DNA of 64,000 nt from IMG/VR virus record IMGVR_UViG_3300037420_002497, one strand, 5' to 3'. The position numbers and the translations under genes were made by a program. The notes below the pieces were generated by a model. That model was not told the DNA's origin, searched no databases, and was given only the letters and a program-made list of their open reading frames with translations. The first letter of the stretch is position 1. Every line of letters starts with the position of its first letter. This stretch comes from a virus. Below are positions 3,950-19,173 of the stretch, one piece after another.

Positions 3950-3980
3950 TTGCATCCATAGGCGCGCCGCCTATATGATC
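3950..3980 (+). promoter_or_regulatory. promoter-operator copy 1 (TTGCAT -35, palindrome ATAGGCGCGCCGCCTAT, TATGAT -10)
   Basis: 17-bp palindrome at 3958-3974 sits between the -35-like and -10-like hexamers; the element is repeated 6 times in the window. Confidence 0.6.
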
Positions 3981-4009
3981 AAGGCTCGCACCGACCACCA
4001 GACAACGCA

Positions 4010-4480
4010 ATGACCACCAAGCCCACCACCAGCCAGCAGCGCCAGCTGATCCTGGACTTCGTGCAGACGGCGCAAAGTCTGGGCGCCACCGGCATCGCCG
4101 TGCGGCTGCCCTCCAGCGACCGGCTCATCGCCTCGCGCGCGGCGCGCCAGATCCGGGGCGATCGCGCCCTGGCCGACTACCACGATGAGCTGGGCAACCG
4201 GGTGAGCCTGGACATGGACGGCGTGGTGCGCCAGTACCTGAAGGGCGAGAAGCCCAGGGCTGCCGCCCCTTCCCCGGCTGTGTCGGTCGTGCTGCGCACC
4301 TGGGACAACGAGCTGGGCGGCTGGCAGCGCCAGTCCATCACCGACTGCGTGGTGGACGGACTGGACGCCGAGCAGCTGCGCAACGCCGCCACGCTGGAGG
4401 AGATCGCCGAGGCCTACGTGCTGGCGCGTCACCCGACCCTGCGCCTGGGCGATTACGGCATCGACATCCGCCTGGGCTGA
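4010..4480 (+). CDS. hypothetical protein (156 aa)
   Basis: first ORF after promoter copy 1. Confidence 0.6.
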   Translation: MTTKPTTSQQRQLILDFVQTAQSLGATGIAVRLPSSDRLIASRAARQIRGDRALADYHDELGNRVSLDMDGVVRQYLKGEKPRAAAPSPAVSVVLRTWDNELGGWQRQSITDCVVDGLDAEQLRNAATLEEIAEAYVLARHPTLRLGDYGIDIRLG

Positions 4481-4510
4481 GCCCCTTCCCCTCCTCCCCG
4501 GAGCCACCGC

Positions 4511-4744
4511 ATGAACGTCCGCACCGCCATCCGCATCGCCCGCGAGTTGCGCCCCGCGATCGGCGCCCATACGCGCCTGATCGGCAACAGCAACGCCACG
4601 CAGGAGCAGTACGAGGCAGCCGAGCTGGCCAGCTCCGAGGCTGTGTCCCTGGCGAAGTACCTGATCTGCCACCTGGACGATCGCCACGCCGCTGTGGTGT
4701 TCGCCCGTGCCGTGGGCATGCCCGGCTACATCAACCTGCGCTGA
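4511..4744 (+). CDS. hypothetical protein (77 aa)
   Basis: GGAGCCACCGCATG start context. Confidence 0.5.
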   Translation: MNVRTAIRIARELRPAIGAHTRLIGNSNATQEQYEAAELASSEAVSLAKYLICHLDDRHAAVVFARAVGMPGYINLR

Positions 4745-4782
4745 CCGGCAGCGCCGACCACCCCCACCCTCCAGGAGCCACC

Positions 4783-5178
4783 ATGACCACCACCAAGCAC
4801 CTGACCGAGAAGCGCGCCGCCGACCGCAAGCGCATGGCAGACCAGCTGCAGCAGCTGGTGCTGAGGCTGGGCGGCACCGTCGAGCGCAGCCAGCTCACGC
4901 CGCGCTGCGAGATGCTGGACATCACCGGTGCGCAGGGTCTGCACGTCTACATCGACCTCGACGGCGAAAGCTGCCAGCCCGACGTGCATGTGATCCCCTG
5001 GCACATCACCTCCCCCTCCGAGGCCAAGCTGGCGCCCAGCTTCGGGGACGTGAACCCGCACCACTTCCGCAAGGCCACGCACGTTGTGTATGGCTTCGCC
5101 GCGCTGCACGCCGAGATCGAGCGCGGCCTGAGCGCAGCCAAGGACGGCAGCGCCTTCCAGCGCCAGCACGGCGCCTGA
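4783..5178 (+). CDS. hypothetical protein (131 aa)
   Basis: CAGGAGCCACCATG start context. Confidence 0.6.
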   Translation: MTTTKHLTEKRAADRKRMADQLQQLVLRLGGTVERSQLTPRCEMLDITGAQGLHVYIDLDGESCQPDVHVIPWHITSPSEAKLAPSFGDVNPHHFRKATHVVYGFAALHAEIERGLSAAKDGSAFQRQHGA

Positions 5179-5215
5179 CCCTTCCACCACTCGACAGATT
5201 CGACAGGAGCACACC

Positions 5216-5731
5216 ATGGGCTGGACCTTCCCCTACTGCACCAACACCCGCGCGCAACTGGTTGAGCACCTGCGCCGCCCCGAGCGCTTCGGCGATCGCA
5301 CCGAACTGCTGGCCGCCTGCACGCGCGGCAACCATCACTGGTATCTGGCGCGCAACAAGGACACCGGCGTGGTGTGGATCGGCCTGGACCTGATGCAGGG
5401 CGGCACGCGCCGCGAGCCGGGCTGGGGCTACAAGGACATGGACGAGTCCATGGGCCCGTATGCCAGCGACTGCCCGCTGAGCTACCTGGACCGGGCCACC
5501 GAGCCCTGCAACGAACACAGCCGCGACTGGCGCGACGGGGTGCGCAAGTACCACGCCCAGCGCAAGGAACGCCCCGAGCCGCGCGCCGGGCTGCGCGTGA
5601 CCTACTGCGGCCACACCTACGAACTGGTGCGCCCCGCCGGCCCGCGCCGGGGCTGGGAAGTGCGCAACACCAGCGGGACCACGTACCGCATGAACGCGCG
5701 CCAGCTGGCCAGCGCCCAGCCGGTTGCCTGA
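5216..5731 (+). CDS. hypothetical Cys/His-rich protein (171 aa)
   Basis: ACAGGAGCACACCATG start context; TGACCCTTCC motif follows the upstream stop codon. Confidence 0.6.
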   Translation: MGWTFPYCTNTRAQLVEHLRRPERFGDRTELLAACTRGNHHWYLARNKDTGVVWIGLDLMQGGTRREPGWGYKDMDESMGPYASDCPLSYLDRATEPCNEHSRDWRDGVRKYHAQRKERPEPRAGLRVTYCGHTYELVRPAGPRRGWEVRNTSGTTYRMNARQLASAQPVA

Positions 5732-5761
5732 GCCCTTCCCCATCACTACAGGAGCTGCACC

Positions 5762-6169
5762 ATGCACACCCTCTACCGGGTCCACGCCAACGGCACCACG
5801 TTCGGGGACTACCTTGCCGACGACACCCAGGGCGCGCGCAACGCTTGCGCCATGGATGCCGGCTATGCGAGCGAGGCCGACATGGAGCGCCAGCTGGAGC
5901 GCCCCAGCGGACTGGTTGCCGAGCCCATCCCCTGCGTCATCACGCTGAGCTGCGAGGTCGCCAAGGTGCAGGCCGGCGGCTTCGTGTACTACGCAGAGTT
6001 CTACGTGGAGCCCGGCGCCGGCTTCGATGCCGACCTGTACGCCCAGACCTTCGACCTGAACCGTGCCGAGATGGATGCGGACAGCGTGAAGGCGGCGCAG
6101 GACGCGGCGGCGCGGCTGGGCGCCGACGAGGTGCTGATGGTGGGCCGCGTCATCCAGCCGAAGATGTGA
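5762..6169 (+). CDS. hypothetical protein (135 aa)
   Basis: CAGGAGCTGCACCATG start context. Confidence 0.6.
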   Translation: MHTLYRVHANGTTFGDYLADDTQGARNACAMDAGYASEADMERQLERPSGLVAEPIPCVITLSCEVAKVQAGGFVYYAEFYVEPGAGFDADLYAQTFDLNRAEMDADSVKAAQDAAARLGADEVLMVGRVIQPKM

Positions 6170-6255
6170 CCACCGTTGAAGTCGCCACAAGGTTGCGAGC
6201 CACCCTCCAGCGCCAGCCGGCGCCCGATCATCTGCACCCCCACCAGGAGCACCCC

Positions 6256-6519: not shown

Positions 6520-6540
6520 GCACCGAGCCCTGCGGCGCCA

Positions 6541-6565: not shown

Positions 6566-6597
6566 GCCTGCGGCCCCTCGTTTGCATGGGAAGATGC

Positions 6598-6657: not shown

Positions 6658-7029
6658 ATGCCCAACTGGATTCGCCGCCCGCAGCTGATGGTCGAGACCC
6701 ACCACGAGCTGGTGTATGCGTCCCTGACGCACGCGGGCACCGAGTACCGCTTCACCTGCAACGAGAAGGGCGAAGTGGACCCGGCTGGGCAGACCGAAGC
6801 GCGGCAGCTGGCGCTGGCGCGCTGCGTCGCGGGCCTGGGCACCGCATACGCCCAGCCGCGTCTGGTCTCGCGCGAGCACAGCTGGTTCGACTCTGGCGCC
6901 ATCCGCTGCCACTGCGGCGCGCGCCACGAGCTGGAGCGCCACGACAGCACCTGCGACAGCTGCGGCCAGGACTACAACGGCTTCGGCCAGGAGCTGCGCC
7001 CGCAGTCGCAGTGGGAGGAGGACTACTGA
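6658..7029 (+). CDS. zinc-ribbon-like protein (123 aa)
   Basis: CHCG...C..C motif near the C-terminus; first ORF after the promoter. Confidence 0.6.
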   Translation: MPNWIRRPQLMVETHHELVYASLTHAGTEYRFTCNEKGEVDPAGQTEARQLALARCVAGLGTAYAQPRLVSREHSWFDSGAIRCHCGARHELERHDSTCDSCGQDYNGFGQELRPQSQWEEDY

Positions 7030-7078
7030 GTCCGCCACCCCTTCCACGCCTACCCGCAACCATCCCAGGAGCCACACC

Positions 7079-7750
7079 ATGAAGCCCACCAAAGCCGCCA
7101 CCAGCAACGCACGCAAGGCCCGCGCACAGCGCGCCGACGAGATCATCTGCACCGTTCCCCGCGAGGGAGACGGCGGCTGGTATCTGGATCTTTACTGGCT
7201 TTATTCCAATGGCCGCTATGGCGTCAGCGACACCGATGGGAACCACACCAGCTGCTACGCCCGCGAGCTGCCCAACGCCCGCGAGGAGGCGCAGGCGTGG
7301 CTGGACTATTCCCTGCACGTCGAGAGCACCGGCACCGATCCCCTGGGCGAGTTCAACATCAAGGCGGTGGAGCGCATCAACGAGCTGTGGCACTTCAGGG
7401 TCGAGCCGGATGCGCAAGGCAAGACCCGCGTCCTGGCCGCGCGCCACCACAACGACGCCGAGACCCCGCTGGACGCGCTGCCCGAGCACGTCACCGACTA
7501 CCTGCACCTGATCCCAGGCACGAACGTGTCCGATGACGACTGGACGGCAGTGGCCGACTTCCACGGGGTCAAGCCGGGCGACTGGCTGCAGGACACGGTG
7601 GAGTCCATCACACGCCGCCCGGACGGCGTGGTGCGCGCCGAGCTGATCGAGGCCGCCCGCGCCAGCGTGGAGCGCCAGCGCACGGCGCTGGAGTGGCTGC
7701 CTGCCCGCAAGCGGCGCACGAAGGCCACCCCCGCCCCAGCGCAACCCTGA
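7079..7750 (+). CDS. hypothetical protein (223 aa)
   Basis: CAGGAGCCACACCATG start context. Confidence 0.6.
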   Translation: MKPTKAATSNARKARAQRADEIICTVPREGDGGWYLDLYWLYSNGRYGVSDTDGNHTSCYARELPNAREEAQAWLDYSLHVESTGTDPLGEFNIKAVERINELWHFRVEPDAQGKTRVLAARHHNDAETPLDALPEHVTDYLHLIPGTNVSDDDWTAVADFHGVKPGDWLQDTVESITRRPDGVVRAELIEAARASVERQRTALEWLPARKRRTKATPAPAQP

Positions 7751-7765
7751 ACAGGAGCCACCACC

Positions 7766-7999
7766 ATGACCACGACCCAAGCACCAGCAGCCGAGTTGCG
7801 CCGCGCATGGCTTGTGCCAACGCCCGCCTGGACCCATCCCGCGTGGGTTGTCTGCGCACCCAGACCCATCACCGAGGATGACGCACGGCTGTCCGTCTTT
7901 GGCCCGGTGCCCGCCGGCTTCCCAACCGCGACGCACTTCTTCCCGGCCAACAGCGAGCAGGCCGGCAAGGAGCTGGTGGCGAGCCTGTTGGAGATATAG
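7766..7999 (+). CDS. hypothetical protein (77 aa)
   Basis: CAGGAGCCACCACCATG start context. Confidence 0.5.
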   Translation: MTTTQAPAAELRRAWLVPTPAWTHPAWVVCAPRPITEDDARLSVFGPVPAGFPTATHFFPANSEQAGKELVASLLEI

Positions 8000-8010
8000 G
8001 CGCGCCGCCC
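7996..8010 (+). promoter_or_regulatory. partial (half) copy of the operator palindrome
   Basis: ATAGGCGCGCCGCCC lacks the right arm; lies 30 nt upstream of full copy 3. Confidence 0.4.
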
Positions 8011-8031
8011 CTCGTTTGAGTGGTGATTCTC

Positions 8032-8062
8032 TTGATCGCATAGGCGCGCCGCCTATATGATC
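8032..8062 (+). promoter_or_regulatory. promoter-operator copy 3
   Basis: TTGATC, then the palindrome at 8040-8056, then TATGAT; same conserved leader as copy 2. Confidence 0.6.
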
Positions 8063-8092
8063 TGGGCTCGCTCAACGCAAACGGAGATCGAC

Positions 8093-9061
8093 ATGCAAGC
8101 CACCACCACCCGCACCGGCACCGCCTTCGACGACATGGACAGCGACCTGGGCGCGCTGGCCGGCGAGACCGCCGTCTACGTCCCGGGCGAAGGCCGCAAC
8201 CGTCGCGAGCCGCGCGAGGAGCTGGTGGCGCTGCACGAGGAGAAGTGCCCGAAGTGCCAGGGCTCGGGCCGCTTCCGGGGATTCACGGGCCGCCTGCTGG
8301 GCCAATGCTTCACTTGCCAGGGCGGCGGCAAGGTGTTCTTCAAGACCAGCGCCGTGCAGCGCGCCAAGTGCCGCGAGCAGGCCAAGGCGCGCGAGGAGCG
8401 CAAGCAGCAGGAGGCGCACAGCGCCTTCGCGGCCGAGCACCCGACCGAGTGGGCGTGGATGCGGGAGCGCGCCCTGCGCTGGGACTTCGCCCGCTCCATG
8501 GTCGAGGCGGTGGCCAAGTGGGGCCGCCTGACGGACGGCCAGCTGGCCGCCGTGCGCAAGTGCATCGCCAAGGATGCCGAGCGCGCCCAGCTGCGCGCCG
8601 CCGAGCAGCAGCAGCGCGCCGAGCTGGAGCGCACCGCCCAGGCGGTGAACATCGCCGCCGTCGAGGAAGCCTTCCAGCGCGCCAAGGACCGGCAGGTGAA
8701 TCGCCCGAAGCTGCGCCTTGCCGCCGATGCGGTGGAAGGCGCCGATGCGGCCGAGTACGTGTTCAGCCCGGCCGGCGAGAACAGCCGCAACGCCGGGTCC
8801 GTGTACGTCACCACCCGCCCGGAGCGCGGCGAGGAAGGGGTCTACCTGGGCAAGATCATGGGCGGCAAGTTCCTGAAGGTGCGCGACTGCAGCGCCGCCC
8901 AGGAAGCGCAGATCGTCGCCGTCGCATCCAACCCGGGCGAGGCCGCCAAGGCCTACGGGCAGCGCATCGGCGCCTGCAGCGTGTGCGGTCGCACCCTGAC
9001 GGACGGCACCAGCATCGACCTGGGCATCGGGCCGATTTGCGCAGAGCGCTACGGGTTCTAA
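8093..9061 (+). CDS. zinc-ribbon protein (322 aa) with C-terminal CxxCGRxLTDGTSIDLGIGPICA motif
   Basis: start placed by analogy with the other cassettes; motifs CPKCQGSG, CFTCQGGG and CSVCGR are present. Confidence 0.6.
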   Translation: MQATTTRTGTAFDDMDSDLGALAGETAVYVPGEGRNRREPREELVALHEEKCPKCQGSGRFRGFTGRLLGQCFTCQGGGKVFFKTSAVQRAKCREQAKAREERKQQEAHSAFAAEHPTEWAWMRERALRWDFARSMVEAVAKWGRLTDGQLAAVRKCIAKDAERAQLRAAEQQQRAELERTAQAVNIAAVEEAFQRAKDRQVNRPKLRLAADAVEGADAAEYVFSPAGENSRNAGSVYVTTRPERGEEGVYLGKIMGGKFLKVRDCSAAQEAQIVAVASNPGEAAKAYGQRIGACSVCGRTLTDGTSIDLGIGPICAERYGF

Positions 9062-9096
9062 TCCTTCCTGGCCCGGCCACCACGCCGGGCCCCTTC

Positions 9097-9160
9097 CGGC
9101 GGCTTCGGCCGCCACCACCCCAGCCGGCGAGGAGCCGGCCAGATCGAGGAGATCGCCATG
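9097..9160 (+). repeat. 64-bp direct repeat copy 1 (5'UTR and RBS region)
   Basis: about 97% identical to 9423-9486. Confidence 0.6.
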
Positions 9161-9415
9161 CTGATCAACATCAACACCACCGCCGCGCAGGTGGCAAAGC
9201 AGTTCGGTCCTGAGCTGAACATGGGCATCCTGTCCGAGAGGGACGGCATGGCCGCCCTGCTCTGGCTGGGGAGCCACGCCTACAGCAACACGGATCACGC
9301 CGCCCCGGAGTTCAGCAAGATCAGGGATGCCATCCGCGCCGATCGCGAGTACATGAAACACCTGCGCGAACTGGACGCCGCCGAGAACGCCGCCCGCGCC
9401 GCGCGCCGCGCCTGA
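9158..9415 (+). CDS. hypothetical protein (85 aa)
   Basis: flanked by the duplicated 64-bp sequence. Confidence 0.5.
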   Translation: MLININTTAAQVAKQFGPELNMGILSERDGMAALLWLGSHAYSNTDHAAPEFSKIRDAIRADREYMKHLRELDAAENAARAARRA

Positions 9416-9422
9416 CCCGTTT

Positions 9423-9486
9423 CGGCGGCTTCGTCCGCCACCACCCCAGCCGGCGAGGAGCCGGCCAGATCGAGGAGATCACCATG
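9423..9486 (+). repeat. 64-bp direct repeat copy 2
   Basis: matches 9097-9160. Confidence 0.6.
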
Positions 9487-10077
9487 ACCCGCACCGTTTC
9501 CCTGGTGGCCACCACCGAAGCCATCCAGCGCCACTTCCCGGGCTCGCGCGAGCCGTCCGGCAACTGCCGGCCCGGCATCATGTCCGCGCGCTTTGAGGTG
9601 GACCCCGAGAAGTGCACCAGCAAGTTCGGCCGGTGGCTGGCCGAGCGCGTCACCACCACCCGCTTCGACGACGACCGCGCCACGCTGAGCGTGACCCTGC
9701 GCGCCACCGAGGAGGATCTGCATGTGCGCGAGCTGGCGCAGCGCATCAGCTCCACGAGCGTGCGCGACGCGGACGACGCAGAGCGCCTGCACCAGCTGCT
9801 GCTCAAGTGGGTCGAGAAGCGCCGGGGCGTCATCGCCTGCTTCGGCGAGCATTGCTTCACGCCGCGCACCATCGACTTCGCATGGCCCGTGTACGGGTCG
9901 GCCATGGCCGAGCACCTGGACACCGTGGAGGCTTACTTCGACCTGTGCGCCAAGCGCATCCGGGGCCTGCGCCCGGCGCGCGTGCGCCTGTGGAACGGCG
10001 AGGAGCCGCCCGAGGCGCTGCAGGTGACGCAGAACCACCCCGTGGCCGCACCCGACATCCCGGCGCTGGGCGCCTGA
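9484..10077 (+). CDS. hypothetical protein (197 aa)
   Basis: ORF with GAGGAGATCACCATG start context. Confidence 0.6.
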   Translation: MTRTVSLVATTEAIQRHFPGSREPSGNCRPGIMSARFEVDPEKCTSKFGRWLAERVTTTRFDDDRATLSVTLRATEEDLHVRELAQRISSTSVRDADDAERLHQLLLKWVEKRRGVIACFGEHCFTPRTIDFAWPVYGSAMAEHLDTVEAYFDLCAKRIRGLRPARVRLWNGEEPPEALQVTQNHPVAAPDIPALGA

Positions 10078-10090
10078 GCAGGAGCATACC

Positions 10091-10375
10091 ATGACCCATC
10101 CGTCCTATGGCGCGAGCGGCCCCGCCATCCTGGCCAAGAGCTACCGCACGCCGACCGCTGCCGAGCGCCGCAAGATCCGCAGCAAGCTGCGCGGCATCGA
10201 CGCCGACCTGCAGCTGATCGTGCGCAAGGCGCCAGCCCCAGACGAGCCGCACTGCTGGGTTGAGGCGCCGGCCCGCTTCAACTCCTTCACGCACTACAGC
10301 CGCCGAGGCAAGGCCCAGCTCGCCTTCCGCGAAGTCATGGGCTGCACCATGGGCCAGGACAAGCCCCAAAGCTGA
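10091..10375 (+). CDS. hypothetical protein (94 aa)
   Basis: AGGAGCATACCATG start context; a terminator follows. Confidence 0.5.
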   Translation: MTHPSYGASGPAILAKSYRTPTAAERRKIRSKLRGIDADLQLIVRKAPAPDEPHCWVEAPARFNSFTHYSRRGKAQLAFREVMGCTMGQDKPQS

Positions 10376-10515: not shown

Positions 10516-10905
10516 ATGCCCTTCGTCATCTGCCCGACCTGCCGCAACAACGCATACGCCCGCAAGGGGGTCGCCGAGGCGACCTGCTTCCTGGACCACA
10601 CCTTCCCCGTGGCCGGCAACGAGCAGCCCAAGACCACCAGCGACCTGCTGCGCGATGAGGTCGAGGCGATCGCGGCCGAGTTCCCCGACCTGGGCCTGTC
10701 GTTCGGCTACATCGGCAATTGGGAGCGCGACTTCGATGGCCGCAGCTTCCGCGTGTTCACGAACCGCCAGGACGAGCACTTCCGCAGCTACTCGATGCAC
10801 CTGGGTGGCGCCGACTCCCTGGAGCGCGCCCTGGAGAGCTTCAAGGCCGGCGCGCTGCGCGCCTTCTGCGAGCGAGCCATGCAGCAGCAGCGCCGCTACT
10901 ACTGA
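10516..10905 (+). CDS. hypothetical protein with N-terminal CPTC zinc-knuckle-like motif (129 aa)
   Basis: start placed by analogy with the other cassettes (leader ...GGAGAACACGATG). Confidence 0.55.
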   Translation: MPFVICPTCRNNAYARKGVAEATCFLDHTFPVAGNEQPKTTSDLLRDEVEAIAAEFPDLGLSFGYIGNWERDFDGRSFRVFTNRQDEHFRSYSMHLGGADSLERALESFKAGALRAFCERAMQQQRRYY

Positions 10906-10946
10906 CCCCTTCCCCGCCTACCCGCACAACCACCAGGAGCCACACC

Positions 10947-11489
10947 ATGGAAACCATCACCAACTTGCACGCCGCGATCGAAGCCCACAAGCCGGCGCTG
11001 GCCGCCAGCTTCACCAGCCGCGTCGAGTCCATGTTCGGCTACCTCGTGTCCAAGTTCGGCGTGCGGATGGACGGCATCTACAACACCACCAGCGCCAAGG
11101 TGTGGCGTGAAACGCTGAGCCCGTTGTGCTCCCACACCCGGGCCAACGACCTGCGCCGCAGCGCCGAGTACCACCTCAACCCGGAGAAGGTGGCCAAGGC
11201 CGCCGCCGAGTACGCCAACCAGACCACCGCAGCCTGGGAAGCCAAGATCCAGGCCAAGCTGGGAGAGCTGGACAGCGCCACGGTGCACTGCCTGGAAGGC
11301 GTGCGCTTCCGCATCACCGGCACGCGCGCCGGCCGCGCCGTCGAGATCCAGCAGGACATGATCCTGAACGTGTCGGCCAAGGGAACGGTGTTCAACCAGT
11401 TCCCGGCGCGCATATACATCGACCGCAAGTTCACCAGCGAGACCGCCTACAAGCGGCTGTTCGCCCCCCAGCAAGCGCAGACCATCTGA
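10947..11489 (+). CDS. hypothetical protein (180 aa)
   Basis: CAGGAGCCACACCATG start context. Confidence 0.6.
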   Translation: METITNLHAAIEAHKPALAASFTSRVESMFGYLVSKFGVRMDGIYNTTSAKVWRETLSPLCSHTRANDLRRSAEYHLNPEKVAKAAAEYANQTTAAWEAKIQAKLGELDSATVHCLEGVRFRITGTRAGRAVEIQQDMILNVSAKGTVFNQFPARIYIDRKFTSETAYKRLFAPQQAQTI

Positions 11490-11548
11490 CCCCTGACCGA
11501 CCCGCCCGGCCGCCGCGCTGGGCCCTCCAGCACCGCCAGGAGACCGCC

Positions 11549-11737
11549 ATGAACGAACTGGTTGCCGCCCTCAACGCCGCCTTCGCCGGCACCCTCTATG
11601 CCGTCGAGGAGGACTACGGTGAACTGCTGTTCTCCCACCTGGACGAGCCCATCGACTTCGGCGAGCTGCCCGAGGAGCTGCAGCACGCCGCCAACGAGCT
11701 GCTGGCAGGCCCCTTCATCCACCTGCACCACGCCTGA
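11549..11737 (+). CDS. small acidic hypothetical protein (62 aa)
   Basis: CAGGAGACCGCCATG start context. Confidence 0.45.
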   Translation: MNELVAALNAAFAGTLYAVEEDYGELLFSHLDEPIDFGELPEELQHAANELLAGPFIHLHHA

Positions 11738-11744
11738 GCTGGCC

Positions 11745-11761
11745 CGTTGGACCGTCCAACA
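11745..11761. promoter_or_regulatory. dispersed palindrome site 1 (cGTTGGACCGTCCAACa), intergenic
   Basis: member of the 7-copy TGTTGGACNGTCCAACA family. Confidence 0.5.
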
Positions 11762-11795
11762 GCCGCCCCGTCCCCACCTACCGAGGAGCAAGACC

Positions 11796-12290
11796 ATGAG
11801 CACCACCTGGACCCCCATCGGCGGCCTAACGGAGAACCCCGGCGCGTGGAGCGACAACAACGGCGGGTTCATCTTCGTCGCCCGAAACGACGATGGCGTG
11901 ATCCGCCGGCAGTTCCGTCCCCACCCCTACCAGGGCGAGCCCTACACGCTCTACACCGGCGACCCCAAGGACCAGGGCGGGCCCAATGTGCCCGATGGCG
12001 CGGTCGCATTCCGGTCGCCGGAAAAGGCCGCCGCCCACCGCCGCAAGCTGGAGGAACAGGAAGCGCTCAAGGGTGTGACTTGGACGGCATCCGGGACGGT
12101 CAGGACAAAGGCCGCGAGCGTTGACGCCGCCATTCAAGCGGCGGCCGAGCATCTGCGCTATCGGCTTGATGGCGGCAGCGCCAGCGTGCGCGTCGATGGC
12201 GTGCTGGCCGCAGACATCGAGTGCTCTTACGCCACCGGCTGGGCCTTCAGGGTCGAGCGTCACAGCCAATGGGCCAAGAAGCGCGCCTGA
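11796..12290 (+). CDS. hypothetical protein (164 aa)
   Basis: GAGGAGCAAGACCATG start context. Confidence 0.55.
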   Translation: MSTTWTPIGGLTENPGAWSDNNGGFIFVARNDDGVIRRQFRPHPYQGEPYTLYTGDPKDQGGPNVPDGAVAFRSPEKAAAHRRKLEEQEALKGVTWTASGTVRTKAASVDAAIQAAAEHLRYRLDGGSASVRVDGVLAADIECSYATGWAFRVERHSQWAKKRA

Positions 12291-12320
12291 CCCCTTCCGC
12301 CGCTGCCCAGGAGCCACGCC

Positions 12321-12704
12321 ATGAGCAAGCCACGCCACGAGCACCGGCTGCACGAGCTGGTACGAAACGTCACCCAGGCGCAGGCCGACGCCTGGGCCAA
12401 GCGCTGCGACCGCAGCTTCGCGTTCTGCATTGAGCTGCTGGGCCTGTCCGTGGAGCGCCACGGGCTGGACTTCTGCGAAGCCTGGGCCGCTCGCCTGGAG
12501 GAGCGCTTCCAGGAGCTGGACGATGCCGCGTGGCGCGAATACTGCGCCGCCGATGACGCGTTCTGGGCCCAGCAGGAGCACACCATGCCCAGCTATCAGG
12601 ACTGGCTGCGCGACCAGGAGCCCGACCGACCCATCAGGGTGGACAGCTGGGCATTCGACCGGCACATGGAGCTGCAGCGCGAGCGCCTGGACGGCTACCG
12701 CTAA
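12321..12704 (+). CDS. hypothetical protein (127 aa)
   Basis: CAGGAGCCACGCCATG start context. Confidence 0.55.
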   Translation: MSKPRHEHRLHELVRNVTQAQADAWAKRCDRSFAFCIELLGLSVERHGLDFCEAWAARLEERFQELDDAAWREYCAADDAFWAQQEHTMPSYQDWLRDQEPDRPIRVDSWAFDRHMELQRERLDGYR

Positions 12705-12750
12705 ACCCACCCCTTCCCCGCTCACCCACAACACCCACAGGAGCCACCCC

Positions 12751-13185
12751 ATGGAAACCGTCACCCGCGACACCATCACCACCCAGACCCTGAGCGCCGA
12801 CGCCCTGCGCGAGCTGGTGCTGCTGGGCCTGAAGGCCAAACGCCCCAACGACCCCGTCATCGAGCTGCTGGAGATCAAGCCGGGCGAGCGCAACACCTAC
12901 GAGCTGACCCTGCGCCGCGCCCCGCAGGACGCCGACTTCGTGCGCGCGGTGCTGCACTTCCAGCCCGAGCACGTCGCGCAGGCACTCAACCAGCTGACCC
13001 AGGCGGGCCGGCTCTGGCTGGGCTTCACCAAGGCCGACATGGCGCGCGAGTACCGGCGCGCCTGCGCCCACACGCCGGGGCTGCTGCCCACCGGGGTGGC
13101 CGAGCGGCTGCGCCGGCTGGATCTGCAGCAGCTGGCGCAGTGCGCCCAAGCCTGCGAAGACGGCACCCCCTGGACCGGCGCCTGA
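12751..13185 (+). CDS. hypothetical protein (144 aa)
   Basis: CAGGAGCCACCCCATG start context. Confidence 0.55.
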   Translation: METVTRDTITTQTLSADALRELVLLGLKAKRPNDPVIELLEIKPGERNTYELTLRRAPQDADFVRAVLHFQPEHVAQALNQLTQAGRLWLGFTKADMAREYRRACAHTPGLLPTGVAERLRRLDLQQLAQCAQACEDGTPWTGA

Positions 13186-13201
13186 GCCCGAGGAGAGCAG
13201 C

Positions 13202-13468
13202 ATGCTGATCGGTTTTCTGGGGTGGTACGCCGAGGCGTGCCACAGCGCCAACTTCGCCGACCGGGGCACCCGCTACAACGTGCTCCACATCCTGGTGCCC
13301 AGGCTGGCGCGCGAACGGCGCGAGCTGCTGCAGGGGCTGGCCCAGCAGCGCAAGCACAGCCGCCCGCTGCCGCCCGAGTACCGGCGGCTGGTGCTGGAGG
13401 ACGTGGCCGACTGCCGCCGCGCCATCCAGGCCGCCCGGCGCCGCGCCCGGGAGCACGGCCATGGGTGA
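13202..13468 (+). CDS. hypothetical protein (88 aa)
   Basis: GAGGAGAGCAGCATG start context. Confidence 0.45.
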   Translation: MLIGFLGWYAEACHSANFADRGTRYNVLHILVPRLARERRELLQGLAQQRKHSRPLPPEYRRLVLEDVADCRRAIQAARRRAREHGHG

Positions 13469-13658
13469 GCTGGACGCCGCCCGCGAGCGGCTGCGGCGCG
13501 AGGCCCGGCTGCGCTGCGCCGAAGCCCTGCTGCGCCTGGGCGACCAGGGCAACGGCCCCGTGACGGTGCTGCTGTACGAGCTGCAGCGCATCCAGCGCAT
13601 GGCGCCGCACGAGCTGCTGGCGCAGCGCGCCCCCGAGCCCGAGCCGCAGCTCCTCTGA
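13461..13658 (+). CDS. hypothetical protein (65 aa)
   Basis: overlaps the upstream gene by 8 nt; a terminator follows. Confidence 0.4.
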   Translation: MGELDAARERLRREARLRCAEALLRLGDQGNGPVTVLLYELQRIQRMAPHELLAQRAPEPEPQLL

Positions 13659-13845: not shown

Positions 13846-14763
13846 ATGTACGAAGCCATCACCCCCGCCGCCCGTTTTGGTCGCGACGCCACGGTGATCC
13901 GCAAGGACCGCGCCCTGACAACCGATGAGCTGCGCGCCGTGGTCCCGTCCCTGTTCGCCCCAGGCGCTCACGAAAGCCGCTCGCAGCGCTACACCTACAT
14001 CCCCACCATTGATGTCCTGAACGAGCTGCGCAAGGAGGGCTTCATGCCCTTCAAGGCGATGCAGTCCAAGTGCCGCGACGTGTCTAAGCGCGAGTACACC
14101 AAGCACGCGCTGTGGCTGCGCCACACCTCGCAGTACGACCGGGGCCAGCTCAAGCAGGTGGGCGATTCGGTGCACGAGATCGTGCTGCTCAACAGCCATG
14201 ACGGCACCAGCGCCTACCAGATGAAGGCCGGCGTGTTCCGCTTGATCTGCACCAACGGCATGGTGGTCAGCGACGGCGCGGTGCAGGACATCCGCGTGCC
14301 GCACAAGGGGGACGTGGGGCATGAGGTGATGCGCGGCGCTTTCGAGGTGCTGGACGGCTTCACCCGCGTGGTGGGCCCCAAGGTCGAAGACATGCGTCGC
14401 ATCACGCTCAGCGAGGAGGAGCAGACCATCATGGCCGACGCCGCCCTGATGCTGCGCTTCGATGACCCGAGCCGGCCGGCGCCCGTCACCGCCAACGACA
14501 TCAACGTGCCGCGCCGCTGGGAGGATCGGGGCAACAGCCTGTGGCTGACTGCCAACCGCTTTCAGGAGAACCTGACCAAAGGCGGGCTGGATGGCCGCAA
14601 CGCGCGCGGCAAGCAGATGAAGACCCGCCCGGTGCAGGGCCTGGATCGCGACGTGGGCCTGCAGTCGGCGCTGTGGCAGCTCACCGAGCGCATGCGTGCC
14701 CTCAAGAACGGCGAGCCCATCCCCGAGATGGCGCGCCCGGCTGAGGATCTGGTCGCCGCCTAA
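13846..14763 (+). CDS. DUF932-family protein (305 aa), a family typical of plasmids and ICEs
   Basis: motifs YTYIPT, WLRHTSQ and LLNSHDGTSAY...RLICTNGMV recognised from memory of the DUF932 family. Confidence 0.65.
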   Translation: MYEAITPAARFGRDATVIRKDRALTTDELRAVVPSLFAPGAHESRSQRYTYIPTIDVLNELRKEGFMPFKAMQSKCRDVSKREYTKHALWLRHTSQYDRGQLKQVGDSVHEIVLLNSHDGTSAYQMKAGVFRLICTNGMVVSDGAVQDIRVPHKGDVGHEVMRGAFEVLDGFTRVVGPKVEDMRRITLSEEEQTIMADAALMLRFDDPSRPAPVTANDINVPRRWEDRGNSLWLTANRFQENLTKGGLDGRNARGKQMKTRPVQGLDRDVGLQSALWQLTERMRALKNGEPIPEMARPAEDLVAA

Positions 14764-14818
14764 GCAGTCCGGCCCGGCCGCCGCGCCGGGCCCTTCCATC
14801 ACCACCCCGGAGAGCGCC

Positions 14819-15103
14819 GTGAGCACGATCAAATTTTTGACCCTGGAACACCTGCGCGTGATCCTTGGCACCGCCGCCGCGATCGCAAAGAGCCCGTCGC
14901 GGCGTGGCGCCGGGTGGCTGCCCGCAGCCATCACCAGCAGCGTGCCGCGCCGCACCGGCGGCGAGGTGGGGCGCTGGGACGACAACGCCGAGGCGCGCCG
15001 CCTGGACACGGACGCCCGGCGCGCCCTGGACGCTGGCGACCGCCTTGGCGCCGCCAGCATCCTGAGCAAGCTGCTTGAGCTGCAGCGCGGCGCAGGACGA
15101 TGA
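14819..15103 (+). CDS. hypothetical protein (94 aa), GTG start
   Basis: GGAGAG sits 5 nt upstream of the GTG; a GC hairpin plus the CCCTTCC motif lie upstream. Confidence 0.4.
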   Translation: MSTIKFLTLEHLRVILGTAAAIAKSPSRRGAGWLPAAITSSVPRRTGGEVGRWDDNAEARRLDTDARRALDAGDRLGAASILSKLLELQRGAGR

Positions 15104-15447
15104 GCAAGCCGCCCCGCAAGCAGCTGGTGACGTACCGAGAAGGCCGCAAGGCCCGGTGCCAGCACAAGAGCCCCTGCAGCGACTGCCCCTGGAGCCGCAA
15201 GGCGCTACCGGGATGGCTGGGCGGCGAGCGCGCCCAGGAGTGGCTGCGCATCGCGCACGGCGAGGACACGGTGGAGTGCCACACGCTGCACGGCGCGCAG
15301 TGCGCCGGCATGGCGATCTACCGGCGAAACGTGGTCAAGAACCCGCGCAACCCCGAGGCGCTGCGACTGGAGGCTGACCGCGAGACCGTGTTCGCCACAC
15401 CGATCGAGTTTCTGGACCACCACACGCTGACAAAGCAAGGAGATTGA
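15100..15447 (+). CDS. Cys-rich hypothetical protein (115 aa)
   Basis: ATGA stop-start overlap with the upstream gene; CSDCPW motif. Confidence 0.5.
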   Translation: MSKPPRKQLVTYREGRKARCQHKSPCSDCPWSRKALPGWLGGERAQEWLRIAHGEDTVECHTLHGAQCAGMAIYRRNVVKNPRNPEALRLEADRETVFATPIEFLDHHTLTKQGD

Positions 15448-15448
15448 C

Positions 15449-16036
15449 ATGGCAACTTGGCTTGGCTCTCGCGCATGGCACTGCGGCAACCCCGAGTGCC
15501 CCGAAGGCGGCTGGCACAAGGCGAGCTACGAGCACGACACCGCCACCGACACCTTCACGGTGGACGAATACTCGGACGGCAAGACCGAGGAGATAGATGA
15601 GGGTGAGGTGCCCGGCCAGCTGGCGCTGGATGCCTCGTGGATGGCGTACAGCATCGACGTGGCCCGCACCGGCGCCGACCCGCTGCACGCCTTCCCGGTG
15701 CCCCGCACCAACCCCACCGCCGAGTGGTGGGAAATCTGCGTGCAGCCGGCCCCCAACGGCATGGCCAACCTCCTGGGCGCGCGCCCGTTCGGCGCCCAGA
15801 CAGCCACGGCACCGCTGCCGCTGTGCGTTGCCGAGAGCCTGGGCGTGATCCCGGACACCGGCACGCTGCGCACGCCCTGGGCCCAGCTGCAGGTCGCCGG
15901 GCCGCCGCTGGTCGCCAACCAGTGGCACCTCGTCCAGCTGATGGTGCAGCGCGATCGCCCGGCCGAGCAGGTGGAGCACGAGCTGAAGCTGGCCGCCTGC
16001 GACTTCATCGCCCAGCGGCGCAACGCCAAAGCCTGA
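15449..16036 (+). CDS. hypothetical protein (195 aa)
   Basis: starts immediately after the previous stop codon. Confidence 0.55.
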   Translation: MATWLGSRAWHCGNPECPEGGWHKASYEHDTATDTFTVDEYSDGKTEEIDEGEVPGQLALDASWMAYSIDVARTGADPLHAFPVPRTNPTAEWWEICVQPAPNGMANLLGARPFGAQTATAPLPLCVAESLGVIPDTGTLRTPWAQLQVAGPPLVANQWHLVQLMVQRDRPAEQVEHELKLAACDFIAQRRNAKA

Positions 16037-16064
16037 CCCCTTCCGCCGCTGCCAGGAGAACAGC

Positions 16065-16283
16065 ATGCATATCGAGAACCCCACCCCCGAGCAGCAGCGC
16101 CTGCTGCAGCACGCCCAGGAATGGCGTGACTACGCCGCCACCGCCAGCCCGGAGGGCTTGGCCCGCACCTGCCTGGACGCCGCCAAGGCGCTGGAGATGC
16201 AGGCGCAGGACGGCATCGCCCGCTGCAGCTGCTGCTTCAAGCCCCGCTCGCGCGGCATGTGGGACGGCCACTTCGACCGTTGA
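16065..16283 (+). CDS. hypothetical protein (72 aa)
   Basis: CAGGAGAACAGCATG start context. Confidence 0.45.
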   Translation: MHIENPTPEQQRLLQHAQEWRDYAATASPEGLARTCLDAAKALEMQAQDGIARCSCCFKPRSRGMWDGHFDR

Positions 16284-16297
16284 CCTGGAGACCACCC

Positions 16298-16462
16298 GTG
16301 AAGATGAAATGCGCATGGTGCGGCCTGGAGCTGGAGACCACCCGCAAGAACCGCCCGAAGCAGCACCGCAACGGCACCACGACCTGCGTGGGCAGCGGGC
16401 AGGAGCGCGCGATCCACGAGCGGCTGCGCGCCGCCGCTGCAGCAGCACACAAGCAGAAGTAA
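16298..16462 (+). CDS. small zinc-ribbon protein (about 54 aa)
   Basis: CAWCG...C motif; GGAGA lies 6 nt upstream of the GTG (an alternative ATG is at 16304). Confidence 0.4.
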   Translation: MKMKCAWCGLELETTRKNRPKQHRNGTTTCVGSGQERAIHERLRAAAAAAHKQK

Positions 16463-16482
16463 GCCACCCCAGGAGATCCCCT

Positions 16483-16776
16483 ATGAACACGCAAGCCACC
16501 CAACCCAACCGCAAGCCGCTGGCTCCCACCTGGGGCGGCATCGTGCACCTGCTGGCCGAGGTGTCCGTCACGGCCGAAAGCATCGAGGCCCGCCGGCAGG
16601 CCAGGACCGAGCTGCAGCGGCTGGCGCGCATCGCCGACGCGCTGGCGCCTGCCCTGGCTGAAGCACTGCAGGGCTTCCTGGACCAGTACGAGGGCACCGA
16701 TGCCGAGTTCCCCGCCCTGACCCAAGGCCGGGCCGCCATGAAGCTGTTCAACGAGATCCGCAAGCCCAAGGACTGA
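16483..16776 (+). CDS. hypothetical protein (97 aa)
   Basis: CAGGAGATCCCCTATG start context. Confidence 0.5.
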   Translation: MNTQATQPNRKPLAPTWGGIVHLLAEVSVTAESIEARRQARTELQRLARIADALAPALAEALQGFLDQYEGTDAEFPALTQGRAAMKLFNEIRKPKD

Positions 16777-16832
16777 CCCCTTCCCCGGTTGGCGCTGCCA
16801 ACCCTTCCCCCGCCACCAACAGGAGCCACACC

Positions 16833-17447
16833 ATGAGCCAGAAATCCGTCAGCGTCGCCATCAGCAACGGCCAGATGCGCGTGCAGTGCCCGTTCAATGA
16901 GCTGTTCATCGGCAGCGCCCACAAGAGCACGGGAACCTGGGATCGCATCAGCAAGTGCTGGGTGTTTGACGCGCGCAACGAGGTGCCGGTGCGCAAGTTG
17001 CTCGCCAAATACTTCGGCACCGATGGCGACTCCATTCCCGACGTGGTTTCGCTGCGCGTGCGGTACGCAGCCGGCGAAGGCGTGACACGCGGCCCCATCA
17101 CCCTGTTCGGCCGCATCATCGCCCGCGCCGAGGACCGCGACGGCGGCGCCGAAGTGGGCTCGGGCGTGCTGGTGGAGAGTGGAGGCTTCACCAGCGGCGG
17201 CAGTCGCGCGAACTGGTGCACCGAAGCCGATCGCCAGGGCGCCGTGGTGGTGCTGCACGACTTCCCGCGCAAGCGTGCGCTGCAGCTGGTGGAGTCGGAC
17301 CCCAAGAGCTACGAGATCGTGAAGCCCGAGCAGCCCACCATCGACGTGGAAGGGCTGACCGCCGAGCGCCAGCGGCTGGCCGCACGCATCGCCGAGATCG
17401 ACGCCGCCCTGGCCACCGCCAGCATCGTCAAGAAAGCCTCAGCCTGA
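16833..17447 (+). CDS. hypothetical protein (204 aa)
   Basis: CAGGAGCCACACCATG start context. Confidence 0.6.
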   Translation: MSQKSVSVAISNGQMRVQCPFNELFIGSAHKSTGTWDRISKCWVFDARNEVPVRKLLAKYFGTDGDSIPDVVSLRVRYAAGEGVTRGPITLFGRIIARAEDRDGGAEVGSGVLVESGGFTSGGSRANWCTEADRQGAVVVLHDFPRKRALQLVESDPKSYEIVKPEQPTIDVEGLTAERQRLAARIAEIDAALATASIVKKASA

Positions 17448-17458
17448 AGGAGCCAGCC

Positions 17459-17776
17459 ATGGAATCCGACCTGCTACTGGTGGCCGACCACGCCCTGACG
17501 CCCGACGAGCGCAAGCTGTTCCTGGACCGCTTCACTGCCGTCAACCGCCACTATCGCGGCGCCCATGTGGCGGACGTGCTGGAAGTGCTGTACGACACCG
17601 ACGCCTATTGCGGCCACGTCGAGCAGTTCCTGCAGGAGCACCCGGAAGTGCCCGGCGAGGTCGGGGCCCTGGCCCTGCTGTGCGCGATCCTCCTCTACAA
17701 CGGCCCCGGCGAGCCCACCGACGCCCAGGCGCTGGCGCTGGCCGATCGCATCACCAAGGCCGCCGCCCGCGACTGA
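17459..17776 (+). CDS. hypothetical protein (105 aa)
   Basis: GAAGGAGCCAGCCATG start context. Confidence 0.5.
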   Translation: MESDLLLVADHALTPDERKLFLDRFTAVNRHYRGAHVADVLEVLYDTDAYCGHVEQFLQEHPEVPGEVGALALLCAILLYNGPGEPTDAQALALADRITKAAARD

Positions 17777-17835
17777 CCCCTTCCGGGGGAATCGGCCGCC
17801 TATCCCCCGAGGCAGGTGGGGGCACGGCGGGCTCT

Positions 17836-17856
17836 TAGGCGCGGCGCCTATACTGC
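17836..17856 (+). promoter_or_regulatory. promoter-operator copy 6 (variant: palindrome TAGGCGC-G-GCGCCTA, -10 TATACT)
   Basis: has a 1-nt spacer instead of 3, but the same half-sites. Confidence 0.5.
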
Positions 17857-17886
17857 GCCCGAAGACCACAGCACCAGGAGCACACC

Positions 17887-18165
17887 ATGGCAGGCCCCCA
17901 CCGCCATCGCGGCCCACACACCGTGGAGCTGGGCGAAGGCTGGCAGGAGTTCATGACCCCGCAGCAGGCCCCGCAGGGCTGGCAGATGCTGGGCACGATC
18001 CACCGGGTGGAGGCCGGCAAGGGCGCCCTGGTGCTGTCCCCCAAGGGCGAGTATTTCTGCGGCAAGGGCATCACCCTGGAGCCGCTGATTCATCGCAAGG
18101 TCGAGGGCGCGCTGCGCGCCGCCGGCCACATGCCACCCAGGAAGGACAGGAGCGTCACCCCATGA
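17887..18165 (+). CDS. hypothetical protein (92 aa)
   Basis: CAGGAGCACACCATG start context. Confidence 0.5.
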   Translation: MAGPHRHRGPHTVELGEGWQEFMTPQQAPQGWQMLGTIHRVEAGKGALVLSPKGEYFCGKGITLEPLIHRKVEGALRAAGHMPPRKDRSVTP

Positions 18166-18524
18166 GCACCGCCACCATCGAACAGCCGAAGGCCGCCAGC
18201 CGGCCCAAGCGCCGCCTCAACCGCATCCAGGTGCCGTACCTGCCGACGCCCGAGCCCGAGCGCGTGCGCGCGCTGCGCCTGGAGCTGGGCCTGACCCACA
18301 AGCAAATGGCCAAGCTGCTGCACCTGTACGACGCCCAGGCCGCCACCCGCTACGAGCGCACGGACGAGGCCGGCGAGTCGGGCTACTCGCTGCACCCCTG
18401 CGCCTGGGACTTGCTGAACCTGTATCACGGCACCAACCCGAAGTTCGTGCTGGTCAACCGCGAGGTGGCCGAAGCCCTTGGCCTGCCGAAGCGGCCGAAG
18501 CTCGACAGCGCGCTGGAGAGCTGA
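18162..18524 (+). CDS. putative HTH DNA-binding protein (120 aa)
   Basis: ATGA overlap with the upstream gene; segment LRLELGLTHKQMAKLL resembles an XRE-type HTH. Confidence 0.45.
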   Translation: MSTATIEQPKAASRPKRRLNRIQVPYLPTPEPERVRALRLELGLTHKQMAKLLHLYDAQAATRYERTDEAGESGYSLHPCAWDLLNLYHGTNPKFVLVNREVAEALGLPKRPKLDSALES

Positions 18525-18527
18525 GCC

Positions 18528-18872
18528 ATGGACATCAAGGATCTGAACAAGGCCACCCTGGCCGGGCCGGCGGAAGTGTTGGCGTTCAAGCGGGGCGAGA
18601 GCGAGCTGGAGGGCGTGACCGTCACGGTGCCGATGCGCGGCCCCGCCCGCCCCCAGCCGAACACCCGCGAGATTCGCGAAAAGCTCGGGTTGACGCCGCA
18701 GGAGTTCTCGACCCGCTTCGGCCTTCCCCTGGCTCAGCTGGAGCTGTGGGAGGACGGACGGGGCATCCCCGCACCCCTGGCGCTGCTGCTGCGGCTGATC
18801 GAGCGCTTCCCCGAGCAGGTCGCCGAGGAGGTGGCCAGGGTCGCCGCCGAGGATGGCAACGAGGACGACTGA
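18528..18872 (+). CDS. XRE-family HTH protein, HigA/antitoxin-like (114 aa)
   Basis: IREKLGLTPQEFSTRFGLPLAQLELWEDGRGIPAPLALLLRLI matches the HTH_XRE antitoxin pattern. Confidence 0.6.
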   Translation: MDIKDLNKATLAGPAEVLAFKRGESELEGVTVTVPMRGPARPQPNTREIREKLGLTPQEFSTRFGLPLAQLELWEDGRGIPAPLALLLRLIERFPEQVAEEVARVAAEDGNEDD

Positions 18873-18875
18873 GCC

Positions 18876-19148
18876 ATGGACCGACGCCAGCGGTTTGAAG
18901 CCTGGGCCCGCGAACAGGGCTGGAGCCTGACGCGCGTCACCGGCAGCGACGACTACGCCTGGGCGCCGGCCCGGGCCGCCTGGGCAGCGTGGCAGGAGCT
19001 GGCGCCGGACGCCGAGCGCTGGCGCTGGGCGCTCAAGCGCAACCGGCCCACGCTGCTGGCCATCGCCTACAGCTCCCGCGCCGCGTGCGCCTACGGTCTC
19101 GACGAGGTGGAGGACGCCTACGCCGCCGCGATGCGCGAGGCGCCCTGA
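18876..19148 (+). CDS. hypothetical protein (90 aa)
   Basis: ORF ending just before the bidirectional terminator. Confidence 0.5.
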   Translation: MDRRQRFEAWAREQGWSLTRVTGSDDYAWAPARAAWAAWQELAPDAERWRWALKRNRPTLLAIAYSSRAACAYGLDEVEDAYAAAMREAP

Positions 19149-19173
19149 CCCCTTCCCCGGCTGCGCGGGACAG

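Follow-up and report, generated by a model that had tools for sequence, protein, structure and literature searches.

The 64,000-nt stretch of viral DNA analysed here (IMG/VR record IMGVR_UViG_3300037420_002497; hereafter the window) carries near its left end a 15.2-kb array of small plus-strand genes, punctuated by six copies of one promoter-like cassette (P1 to P6; Table 1). Codon-usage-based gene calling placed 135 tightly packed, mostly small genes in the window and 34 open reading frames (ORFs), g3 to g36, in the array, in agreement with the number given in an original prediction made from the sequence letters alone; g11 is doubtful, and the true start of g16 is at 10516. The 17-mer ATAGGCGCGCCGCCTAT occurred exactly at 3958, 6606, 8040, 10463 and 13747 (n = 5) and not once in 100 dinucleotide-preserving shuffles; the first four positions had been predicted correctly, and the fifth had been placed one nucleotide off, at 13746. 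ATGAT directly followed all five exact copies to give TATGAT, whose first base is the palindrome's final T, and a TTGnnn hexamer preceded TATGAT at a fixed spacing of 18 nt in every one, so the palindrome occupies the -35/-10 spacer, as predicted, and overlaps the -10. The sixth copy, TTAGGCGCGGCGCCTAT, had been described as a 1-nt-shorter variant at 17836; it starts at 17835, has the same length and keeps the 7-3-7 layout, with two substitutions (position 1 and the centre). It is followed by ACT, which yields TATACT 2 nt further upstream, and has no good -35. Copies of this type, in which the spacing is 16-17 nt, are referred to below as class B, and the five exact copies as class A.

When the copies were aligned on the palindrome, information content was highest on CTTG and on the 22-nt block ATAGGCGCGCCGCCTATATGAT. 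Conservation ended sharply at the edges of this invariant block, and the neighbouring parts of the cassette diverged; variation between copies fell on three positions of the -35, on the dinucleotide just ahead of the palindrome and on the upstream sequence. The -35 hexamers matched the consensus in only 3-4 of six positions, and the sequence upstream of the -35 was GC-rich in all copies, with no AT-rich tract. Sigma-70-like sites were rare elsewhere (one in the remaining 40 kb scanned), and the cassette sites were the only promoter-like sites in the block. Their reading as putative sigma-70-type promoters with the palindrome in the spacer is supported by this arrangement. The arm centres lie ~10 bp apart in the 17-bp site, the geometry of a putative operator for a dimeric helix-turn-helix (HTH) protein; lambda operators are also 17 bp long. 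All six cassettes contained a second element, a C-run/G-run quasi-palindrome (e.g., CCCCTCGTTTGCATGGG) with a variable centre, at a fixed distance of 33 nt before the palindrome and about -45 to -62 from the start site, which may serve as another binding site or form a small hairpin. The previously noted leader, GGCTCGC..CAACGCACCGGAGA..ATG, was common to copies 2-4 and partly to copy 1. In full form, the cassette would comprise an optional intrinsic terminator, the C-run/G-run element, the -35, the 7-3-7 palindrome, the -10 and a leader with a Shine-Dalgarno sequence.

The six copies fell within 15 kb, with none in the other 49 kb of the window. A scan for TAGGCG-N3-CGCCTA gave one extra, degenerate site at 3218 and no further copies in the 20-64 kb interval, and a scan within two mismatches added ATAGGCGCGCCGCCCCT at 7996, a partial copy that precedes copy 3 by 44 nt. 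The palindrome might nevertheless be a host element, either a REP-like repeat, the alternative named in the original prediction, or a co-opted operator of a host global regulator; binding by a phage regulator is only predicted. However, when one genome for each of 185,579 species (596 Gb) was scanned for the 17-mer, 62 single hits were obtained, about the chance level, of which none had the ATGAT flank and no contig carried more than one copy, and a 20-mer scan of metagenome contigs returned a single unrelated contig of 48% GC. The palindrome is thus not REP-like, and since all window copies also sit at promoter positions in one 15-kb block, a host origin of either kind seems scarcely probable.

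Canonical intrinsic terminators (GCCCGGCC..GCCGGGC followed by a run of seven T) were present at 6540, 10394 and 13676, that is, before copies 2, 4 and 5 only, as predicted. No canonical terminator was found upstream of copies 3 and 6 (unit 2 has none after it) or between P5 and g33, and a bidirectional terminator (~19178-19210) marks the end of the array. The array therefore consists of four terminated stretches with two internal promoters, P3 and P6, rather than the six independently terminated units first proposed, and because no canonical terminator precedes P6, transcripts from P5 are predicted to read through into g33-g36. Most other genes were separated by stereotyped spacers: in the spacers of 4481-17886, the linker TGACCCCTTCC occurred right after stop codons (10 hits versus 0.98 expected) and CCAGGAGCCACACCATG at start codons (11 hits versus 0.35 expected), and both occurred almost exclusively on the array's plus strand. 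The block can be pictured as gene cassettes joined via such linkers and punctuated by six copies of what would be a mobile regulatory cassette. Stems of the terminator type (GCCCGGCC..GCCGGGC) were also seen in linkers at 9071, 11504 and 14772, where CCTTCC replaces the T run; these may be decayed terminators or attenuators inside units.

Searches of viral, genome and metagenome collections recovered one true relative, IMGVR_UViG_3300037423_002669 (hereafter the relative), the remaining matches being at chance level; a search for related loci with the g34 alignment likewise recovered only this record, and megablast of the block against phages returned nothing. Megablast matches to Xanthomonas plasmids proved to lie inside the DUF932 coding sequence (g24) and not on a cassette. 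The window and the relative were 94-98% identical where aligned, yet the 15.2-kb array differed by nine insertions, deletions or replacements versus one in the adjacent 8 kb (the leftward operon). Breakpoints fell at the partial palindrome (7996), at the terminator of cassette 4 (10387), at the start of palindrome 6 (17793-17836), just after an extra class-B cassette of the relative, and at duplicated linkers (4477-4499, 7066-7102 and 16037/16777). The partial palindrome, being itself a breakpoint, is therefore probably a recombination scar. As read from this comparison, the cassettes and linkers are putative recombination junctions of a hyperplastic region, as are the PeSL (promoter-early stem-loop) elements of T4-type phages. 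An integron-like array was considered and rejected, no integrase or attC-like sites being recognised.

To compare the palindrome across genomes, 15 copies were aligned, of which the window contributed six, the relative eight (among them the extra class-B copy, upstream of the g27 orthologue, and the leftward site) and the distant contig L072 one. Substitutions were confined to position 1 and the central triplet (CGC, TGC, CGG or ACG); the arms TAGGCG/CGCCTA were invariant, with no compensatory changes in the stem, and protein recognition is therefore favoured. At the level of sequence, this invariance fits the single dimeric regulator that had been proposed. The palindrome can also be drawn as a hairpin whose 7-bp stem and 3-nt loop fill the spacer. 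Folded as RNA with its flanks it reached -10.6 kcal/mol (z -1.05); a U tract is lacking, and the minimum-energy fold of copies 2 and 6 does not contain the hairpin.

These folding results bear on the strongest rival to an operator. In T4-type phages, PeSLs are GC-rich stem-loops of hyperplastic regions that precede ORFans and lie mostly in the -35/-10 spacer of sigma-70 early promoters (PMC2839356), and the palindrome could be purely an element of this kind, that is, a structural stem-loop acting as a read-through attenuator and recombination patch with no dedicated protein, its uniformity due to recent spread or gene conversion. Such a reading would account for the concentration of rearrangements in the array, for breakpoints at cassettes and linkers, and for the fact that the known copies all come from closely related genomes. 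The hairpin, however, is weak and unused in two copies, termination is already performed by separate canonical terminators, and conservation is sharply bounded to the 22-mer, with changes confined to the centre and position 1 and none of them compensatory. We consider a purely structural element rather unlikely.

Alternatively, the 22-nt element could be the promoter of a phage-encoded or virion RNA polymerase that reads an extruded hairpin, as does the N4 virion RNA polymerase (vRNAP). Conservation of N4 early promoters runs from -17 to +1 and includes a GC-rich heptamer centred at -11 with flanking inverted repeats (PMC4496689); the array offers a comparable 7-bp stem (N4-type hairpins have 5-7 bp), 3-nt loop and GC-rich centre within ~22 invariant nt at the starts of early units near a genome end. 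Against this, CTTG is kept exactly at the -35 in all class-A copies, both classes have good -10 hexamers whose place with respect to the palindrome differs by 2 nt, and the centre of the template-strand loop is C in every copy, whereas N4 vRNAP needs a purine. In addition, no RNA polymerase domain was detected among the window proteins, and the head module is of the HK97 type and not schitovirus-like. An N4-type promoter is accordingly very improbable.

If the palindrome is an operator, its best candidate for a binding repressor is g34, the gene at 18162 and one of several HTH genes named in the original prediction. The last unit has the order P6-g33-g34-(g35)-g36, with g34 overlapping g33 by ATGA. 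The pair g33-g34 is kept together with a class-B cassette (CTAGGCGCGCCGCCTAT + ACT, C/G hairpin) in both the relative and L072, which with the window makes three lineages; the linkage persists in L072 although its g34 is only 59% identical, and LHLYDAQAA(T/S)RYER, the presumptive recognition-helix segment of g34, is invariant in all three. Weak HTH_31/HTH_3 hits were obtained for 5 of 6 family members, g34 matched a PHROG annotated as transcriptional regulator (8.8e-7), and the JGI annotation is XRE-family regulator. With a profile built from the six members, the best PDB match was Aca3 (9vt3; E 2.4e-4), over the HTH only. The family is tiny, with 7 hits among 1.84 billion representative proteins, and no comparable operator was seen in the contexts of the distant homologues P0004 and P0008. 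A solitary g33 homologue (72% identity) without g34 was found among DUF499-like and PLD-like genes in contig L084 (9900-10255; Logan SRR33780561), where the palindrome is decayed (TCAGGCGTTTCGCCTAT) and the leader resembles that of cassette 5; this suggests that a cassette-borne gene moved to another context. Decay of the palindrome where g34 is missing is a further point against a purely structural role.

The remaining HTH candidates fared less well. The relative has the same operators yet no g35 (18528), which is therefore an unlikely regulator. The Cro/CI-like pair (the gene at 29384 and its neighbour) has operators of its own, TAGCCGTTGGCT at 29687 and TAGCCAATGGCTA at 29775, and is disfavoured because these differ from the palindrome.

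The whole explanation that we put forward, and regard as about evenly balanced between right and wrong, is a hyperplastic early region in which one mobile cassette is repeated six times and shut off by a g34 dimer. Host RNA polymerase would fire P1-P5 once naked phage DNA enters the cell. Transcription from P5 would read through ~4.4 kb to g33-g34, and since no canonical terminator lies between P5 and g33, the production of g34 would be delayed by the time needed to transcribe that distance. The g34 dimer, possibly with g33, would then bind the palindrome and shut all six promoters, its own weak P6 included. The outcome would be a single delayed-feedback pulse of ~34 small proteins, followed by silence later in infection or in the lysogen, and the conserved cassettes and linkers would double as homology patches for gene shuffling. 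More tentatively, and as a reading less likely than not, we propose that the g34 operator was copied onto every cassette, so that g34 would be the master switch and pulse timer of ~34 orphan early proteins, a scaled-up Aca-type circuit for an anti-defence or takeover regulon at the first-entering end of the genome.

Several observations weigh against a circuit operated by g34. Scanned alone, g34 scored 19 bits versus a Pfam gathering score of 27, its AlphaFold model was poor (predicted local distance difference test score, pLDDT, of 44), and the match to Aca3 is of the kind common to HTH proteins in general. A gene elsewhere in the phage genome, or one of the host, could supply the regulator instead. 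P6 lacks a recognisable -35, and autoregulated expression from P6 is therefore uncertain. Because the cassette-bearing genomes are all close relatives (three lineages), arm invariance may in part reflect recent spread or gene conversion, and PeSLs demonstrate that promoter spacers can hold stem-loops that are not operators (PMC2839356). The spacer, too, is suboptimal, being very GC-rich and 18 nt long (optimum 17 nt). This last point would suit an activator site, where a dimer sitting in the GC-rich, over-long spacer would either remodel the promoter, as MerR does, or recruit RNA polymerase; so would the partial match of the -35 hexamers (3-4 of 6) and the absence of a -35 from class-B copies. 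MerR-type promoters have spacers of 19-20 nt, however, and a site overlapping the -10 usually represses; the class-B spacing is 16-17 nt, and no MerR-family domain was found in any of the 135 window proteins. Activation is on this account improbable.

The block resembles known early-gene circuits of phages and plasmids and is not a new kind of system; it can probably be summed up as a PeSL-like array in which mobile early-promoter cassettes are combined with an Aca-like feedback repressor. In architecture its nearest known counterpart is the PeSL cassette, and in logic the Aca repressor circuit. With PeSLs (Arbiol et al. 2010, PMC2839356; Comeau et al. 2014, PMC4122927) it shares a repeated sigma-70-like early promoter with a GC-rich stem-loop, a terminator function and a Shine-Dalgarno sequence in the cassette, ORFans downstream, and cassette-bounded indels and replacements between close relatives. 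It differs in belonging to a phage with an HK97-type head module (not a T4-type myovirus) and 68% GC, in having no AT-rich upstream tract, in leaving termination to a separate canonical terminator, and in carrying a linked HTH gene behind the variant cassette. Moreover, the stem-loop sequence is identical in each copy except at non-arm positions, which points to protein recognition, and promoter-less linkers (TGACCCCTTCC ... CCAGGAGCCACACCATG) also serve as junctions.

In the Aca (anti-CRISPR-associated) circuits of acr-aca operons, a strong early promoter has an inverted repeat within its core and is repressed by an HTH protein encoded at the end of the operon (PMC9410906). The array likewise carries an inverted repeat within a sigma-70-like core promoter; its leading genes are small and unknown, and the 3' end is taken by a small HTH gene. 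Aca promoters commonly have another inverted repeat further upstream, and the best solved relative of the g34 profile is Aca3 (PMC9410906; PMC6765145). The Aca HTH protein is proven to repress its own promoter, whereas g34 is a candidate for binding whose likeness to Aca3 is weak and limited to the HTH. The array also has one operator on six promoters, ~34 genes and 15 kb where an Aca circuit has one short operon, and its upstream genes match no known Acr or anti-restriction family. The CUP/ArdK regulon of IncN plasmids (PMC6289460) provides reiterated promoter-proximal elements before establishment and anti-restriction genes, all bound by one element-encoded, autoregulating repressor, and can be likened to the circuit predicted here; it lies, however, in the leading region of a conjugative plasmid and not in a phage, the sequences are unrelated, and no ArdK-like protein was recognised in the window. 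Finally, Bacillus phage SPO1 has a host-takeover module (Stewart et al. 1998, cited through PMC6873191) that recalls the array in gene content: a ~12-kb terminal block of ~26 small early genes in several operons, each with strong host-type promoters and ribosome-binding sites. Its promoters are not reported to share an embedded operator, and SPO1 is lytic, a myovirus that infects a low-GC host.

Should g34 bind the palindrome, the array would be a single-input regulon in which one operator sequence marks each early unit of an uncultured large phage, the ~34 orphan proteins would form a candidate list for anti-defence or host-takeover functions, and the operator could be used as a tag for new anti-defence genes. 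The PeSL idea of mobile promoter cassettes that drive shuffling would extend beyond T4-type phages to a GC-rich phage with an HK97 head, and the Aca design would have been enlarged from a single operon to 15 kb of genes. Without binding by g34, the block would still be a tidy but ordinary case of cassette-mediated mosaicism.

Table 1. Coordinates of the cassettes, units and flanking features of the array (C/G, C-run/G-run element; T7, run of seven T).
Feature	Position	Strand	Details
Cassette P1	3925..4009	+	C/G 3925-3940; -35 TTGCAT 3950-3955; palindrome 3958-3974; -10 TATGAT 3974-3979; leader to g3 ATG at 4010
Unit 1, g3-g8	4010-4480, 4511-4744, 4783-5178, 5216-5731, 5762-6169, 6256-6519	+	Small, no Pfam family
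Terminator + cassette P2	6540..6657	+	Stem-loop 6540-6558, T7; C/G 6574-6590; -35 TTGCGT 6598-6603; palindrome 6606-6622; -10 6622-6627; leader GGCTCGCTCAACGCACCGGAGA to ATG 6658
Unit 2	6658..7999	+	g9 6658-7029; g10 7079-7750; decayed stretch 7751-7995 with doubtful 30-aa ORF
Partial palindrome ATAGGCGCGCCGCCCCT	7996..8012	+	Fused to C/G of cassette 3; window/relative breakpoint
Cassette P3, internal promoter	8008..8092	+	C/G 8008-8023; -35 TTGATC 8032-8037; palindrome 8040-8056; -10 8056-8061; conserved leader to ATG at 8093
Unit 3	8093..10375	+	g12 8093-9061 (DUF6011, phrog_4046), g13, g14, g15
Terminator + cassette P4	10394..10515	+	Stem-loop 10394-10413, T7; C/G 10431-10446; -35 TTGCCT 10455-10460; palindrome 10463-10479; -10 10479-10484; leader to g16 ATG 10516
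Unit 4, g16-g23	10516..13658	+	No recognisable family
Terminator + cassette P5	13676..13845	+	Stem-loop 13676-13693, T7; C/G 13714-13730; -35 TTGCGC 13739-13744; palindrome 13747-13763; -10 13763-13768; leader differs from others, longer, to ATG 13846
Unit 5	13846..17776	+	g24 (DUF932, 13846-14763) to g32
Cassette P6, class B	17777..17886	+	CCCCTTCCGGGGGAAT motif 17777; C/G hairpin 17804-17822; variant palindrome TTAGGCGCGGCGCCTAT 17835-17851; -10 TATACT 17849-17854; poor -35
g33	17887..18165	+	92 aa; conserved partner of g34
g34	18162..18524	+	120-aa XRE-type HTH protein
g35, g36	18528-18872, 18876-19148	+	g35 HigA-2/MqsA-like HTH
Bidirectional terminator (AAAAAAGCCCCGGGG...CCCCGGGGCTTTT)	~19178-19210, within 19175..19215	.	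Between array and convergent leftward operon; read from sequence
Degenerate leftward cassette remnant	3218..3270	-	Palindrome ATAGGCGCCGCGCCTGC 3218-3234; CCCCC..GGGGG hairpin; TTGACG

The leftward remnant outside the array has no usable -10 and lies upstream of a possible 43-aa ORF (~3015-3145, minus) and a GP88-family gene (2159-3001, minus); at the equivalent site the relative has perfect arms (ATAGGCGACGCGCCTAG). Among the array genes, Pfam recognised only DUF6011 (g12), DUF932 (g24) and two HTH proteins, and several genes belong to PHROG families of unknown function (g6 matches phrog_21047). NCBIfam, PADLOC and PDB sequence searches revealed no anti-CRISPR, anti-restriction or defence family in the array and nothing more to recognise, which bears out the earlier statement that almost all of these proteins are unrecognisable. 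The g33 protein is without family, and its model (pLDDT 77) found no fold match in the PDB. A host-takeover or anti-defence role for the array genes is plausible from their position and architecture despite the lack of such matches. We also considered that the array might be a prophage 'moron' or a defence island, a reading for which PADLOC gave no support, although the genes may be expressed from a lysogen. Two genes in different units, g10 (7079-7750) and g27 (15449-16036), are paralogues (29% identity over 134 aa, E 6e-13).

The element that carries the array is a large (over 100 kb) tailed phage of a GC-rich host (the phage itself has 68% GC) with an HK97-type head, and not a conjugative element, so that the conjugation mentioned in the original prediction does not apply. 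This identity rests on the head and packaging module found upstream in the relative and on PHROG matches across the window. The relative is part of a 123,000-bp JGI contig, Ga0395907_0000104, in which genes for capsid, prohead protease, portal, large and small terminase and an HNH endonuclease, all leftward, lie just left of the point corresponding to the start of the window; ~3.7 kb of repeat-rich non-coding DNA and the GP88-family gene separate this module from the array. Pfam and PHROG searches placed phage functions throughout the window, including a replication initiator, a RuvC-type resolvase, a Sak4-like annealing protein, a MazG-type pyrophosphatase, dihydrofolate reductase, RtcB, ParB/SopB, Cro-like g59 and CI-like g61. 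Domain scans of the 135 window proteins detected no relaxase, type IV secretion system or ArdK-like family, T4 core genes were seen neither in the PHROG and domain matches of the window nor in the upstream module of the relative, and Rfam (gathering threshold) and tRNA scans of the window returned nothing. The divergent Cro-like g59 (29384-29674, minus) and CI-like g61 (29867-30316) form a switch at 29675-29866 beside the replication initiator g58, and a MarR-like winged-helix protein (51244-52107) and ParB/SopB (60885-61916) are encoded further right. Together, the switch, the initiator, ParB/SopB and the MarR-like protein suggest a temperate or plasmid-prophage lifestyle, and the phage is probably temperate.

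Elsewhere in the window, an RtcB RNA ligase (47599-48828), a dihydrofolate reductase (44222-44734) and a HAD_SAK_2 ('Swiss army knife' RNA-repair) protein (21099-21593) hint at RNA-repair functions, possibly directed against tRNA-cleaving defences. The repeat-rich non-coding region placed between the packaging module and the promoter array (1-1300 and 3300-3680) is kept in the relative and contains strand-asymmetric, short degenerate repeats: ACCAGGG occurred 40 times and GCACCAG 38 times on the plus strand versus about 1-3 times on the minus strand, and GGCGCAGCTGGTGCGAGCTG, which occurred six times, includes GCTGGTGC, a 7/8 match to E. coli Chi. This region could be a Chi-like anti-RecBCD array, a set of terminase or cos sites, or a centromere-like site.

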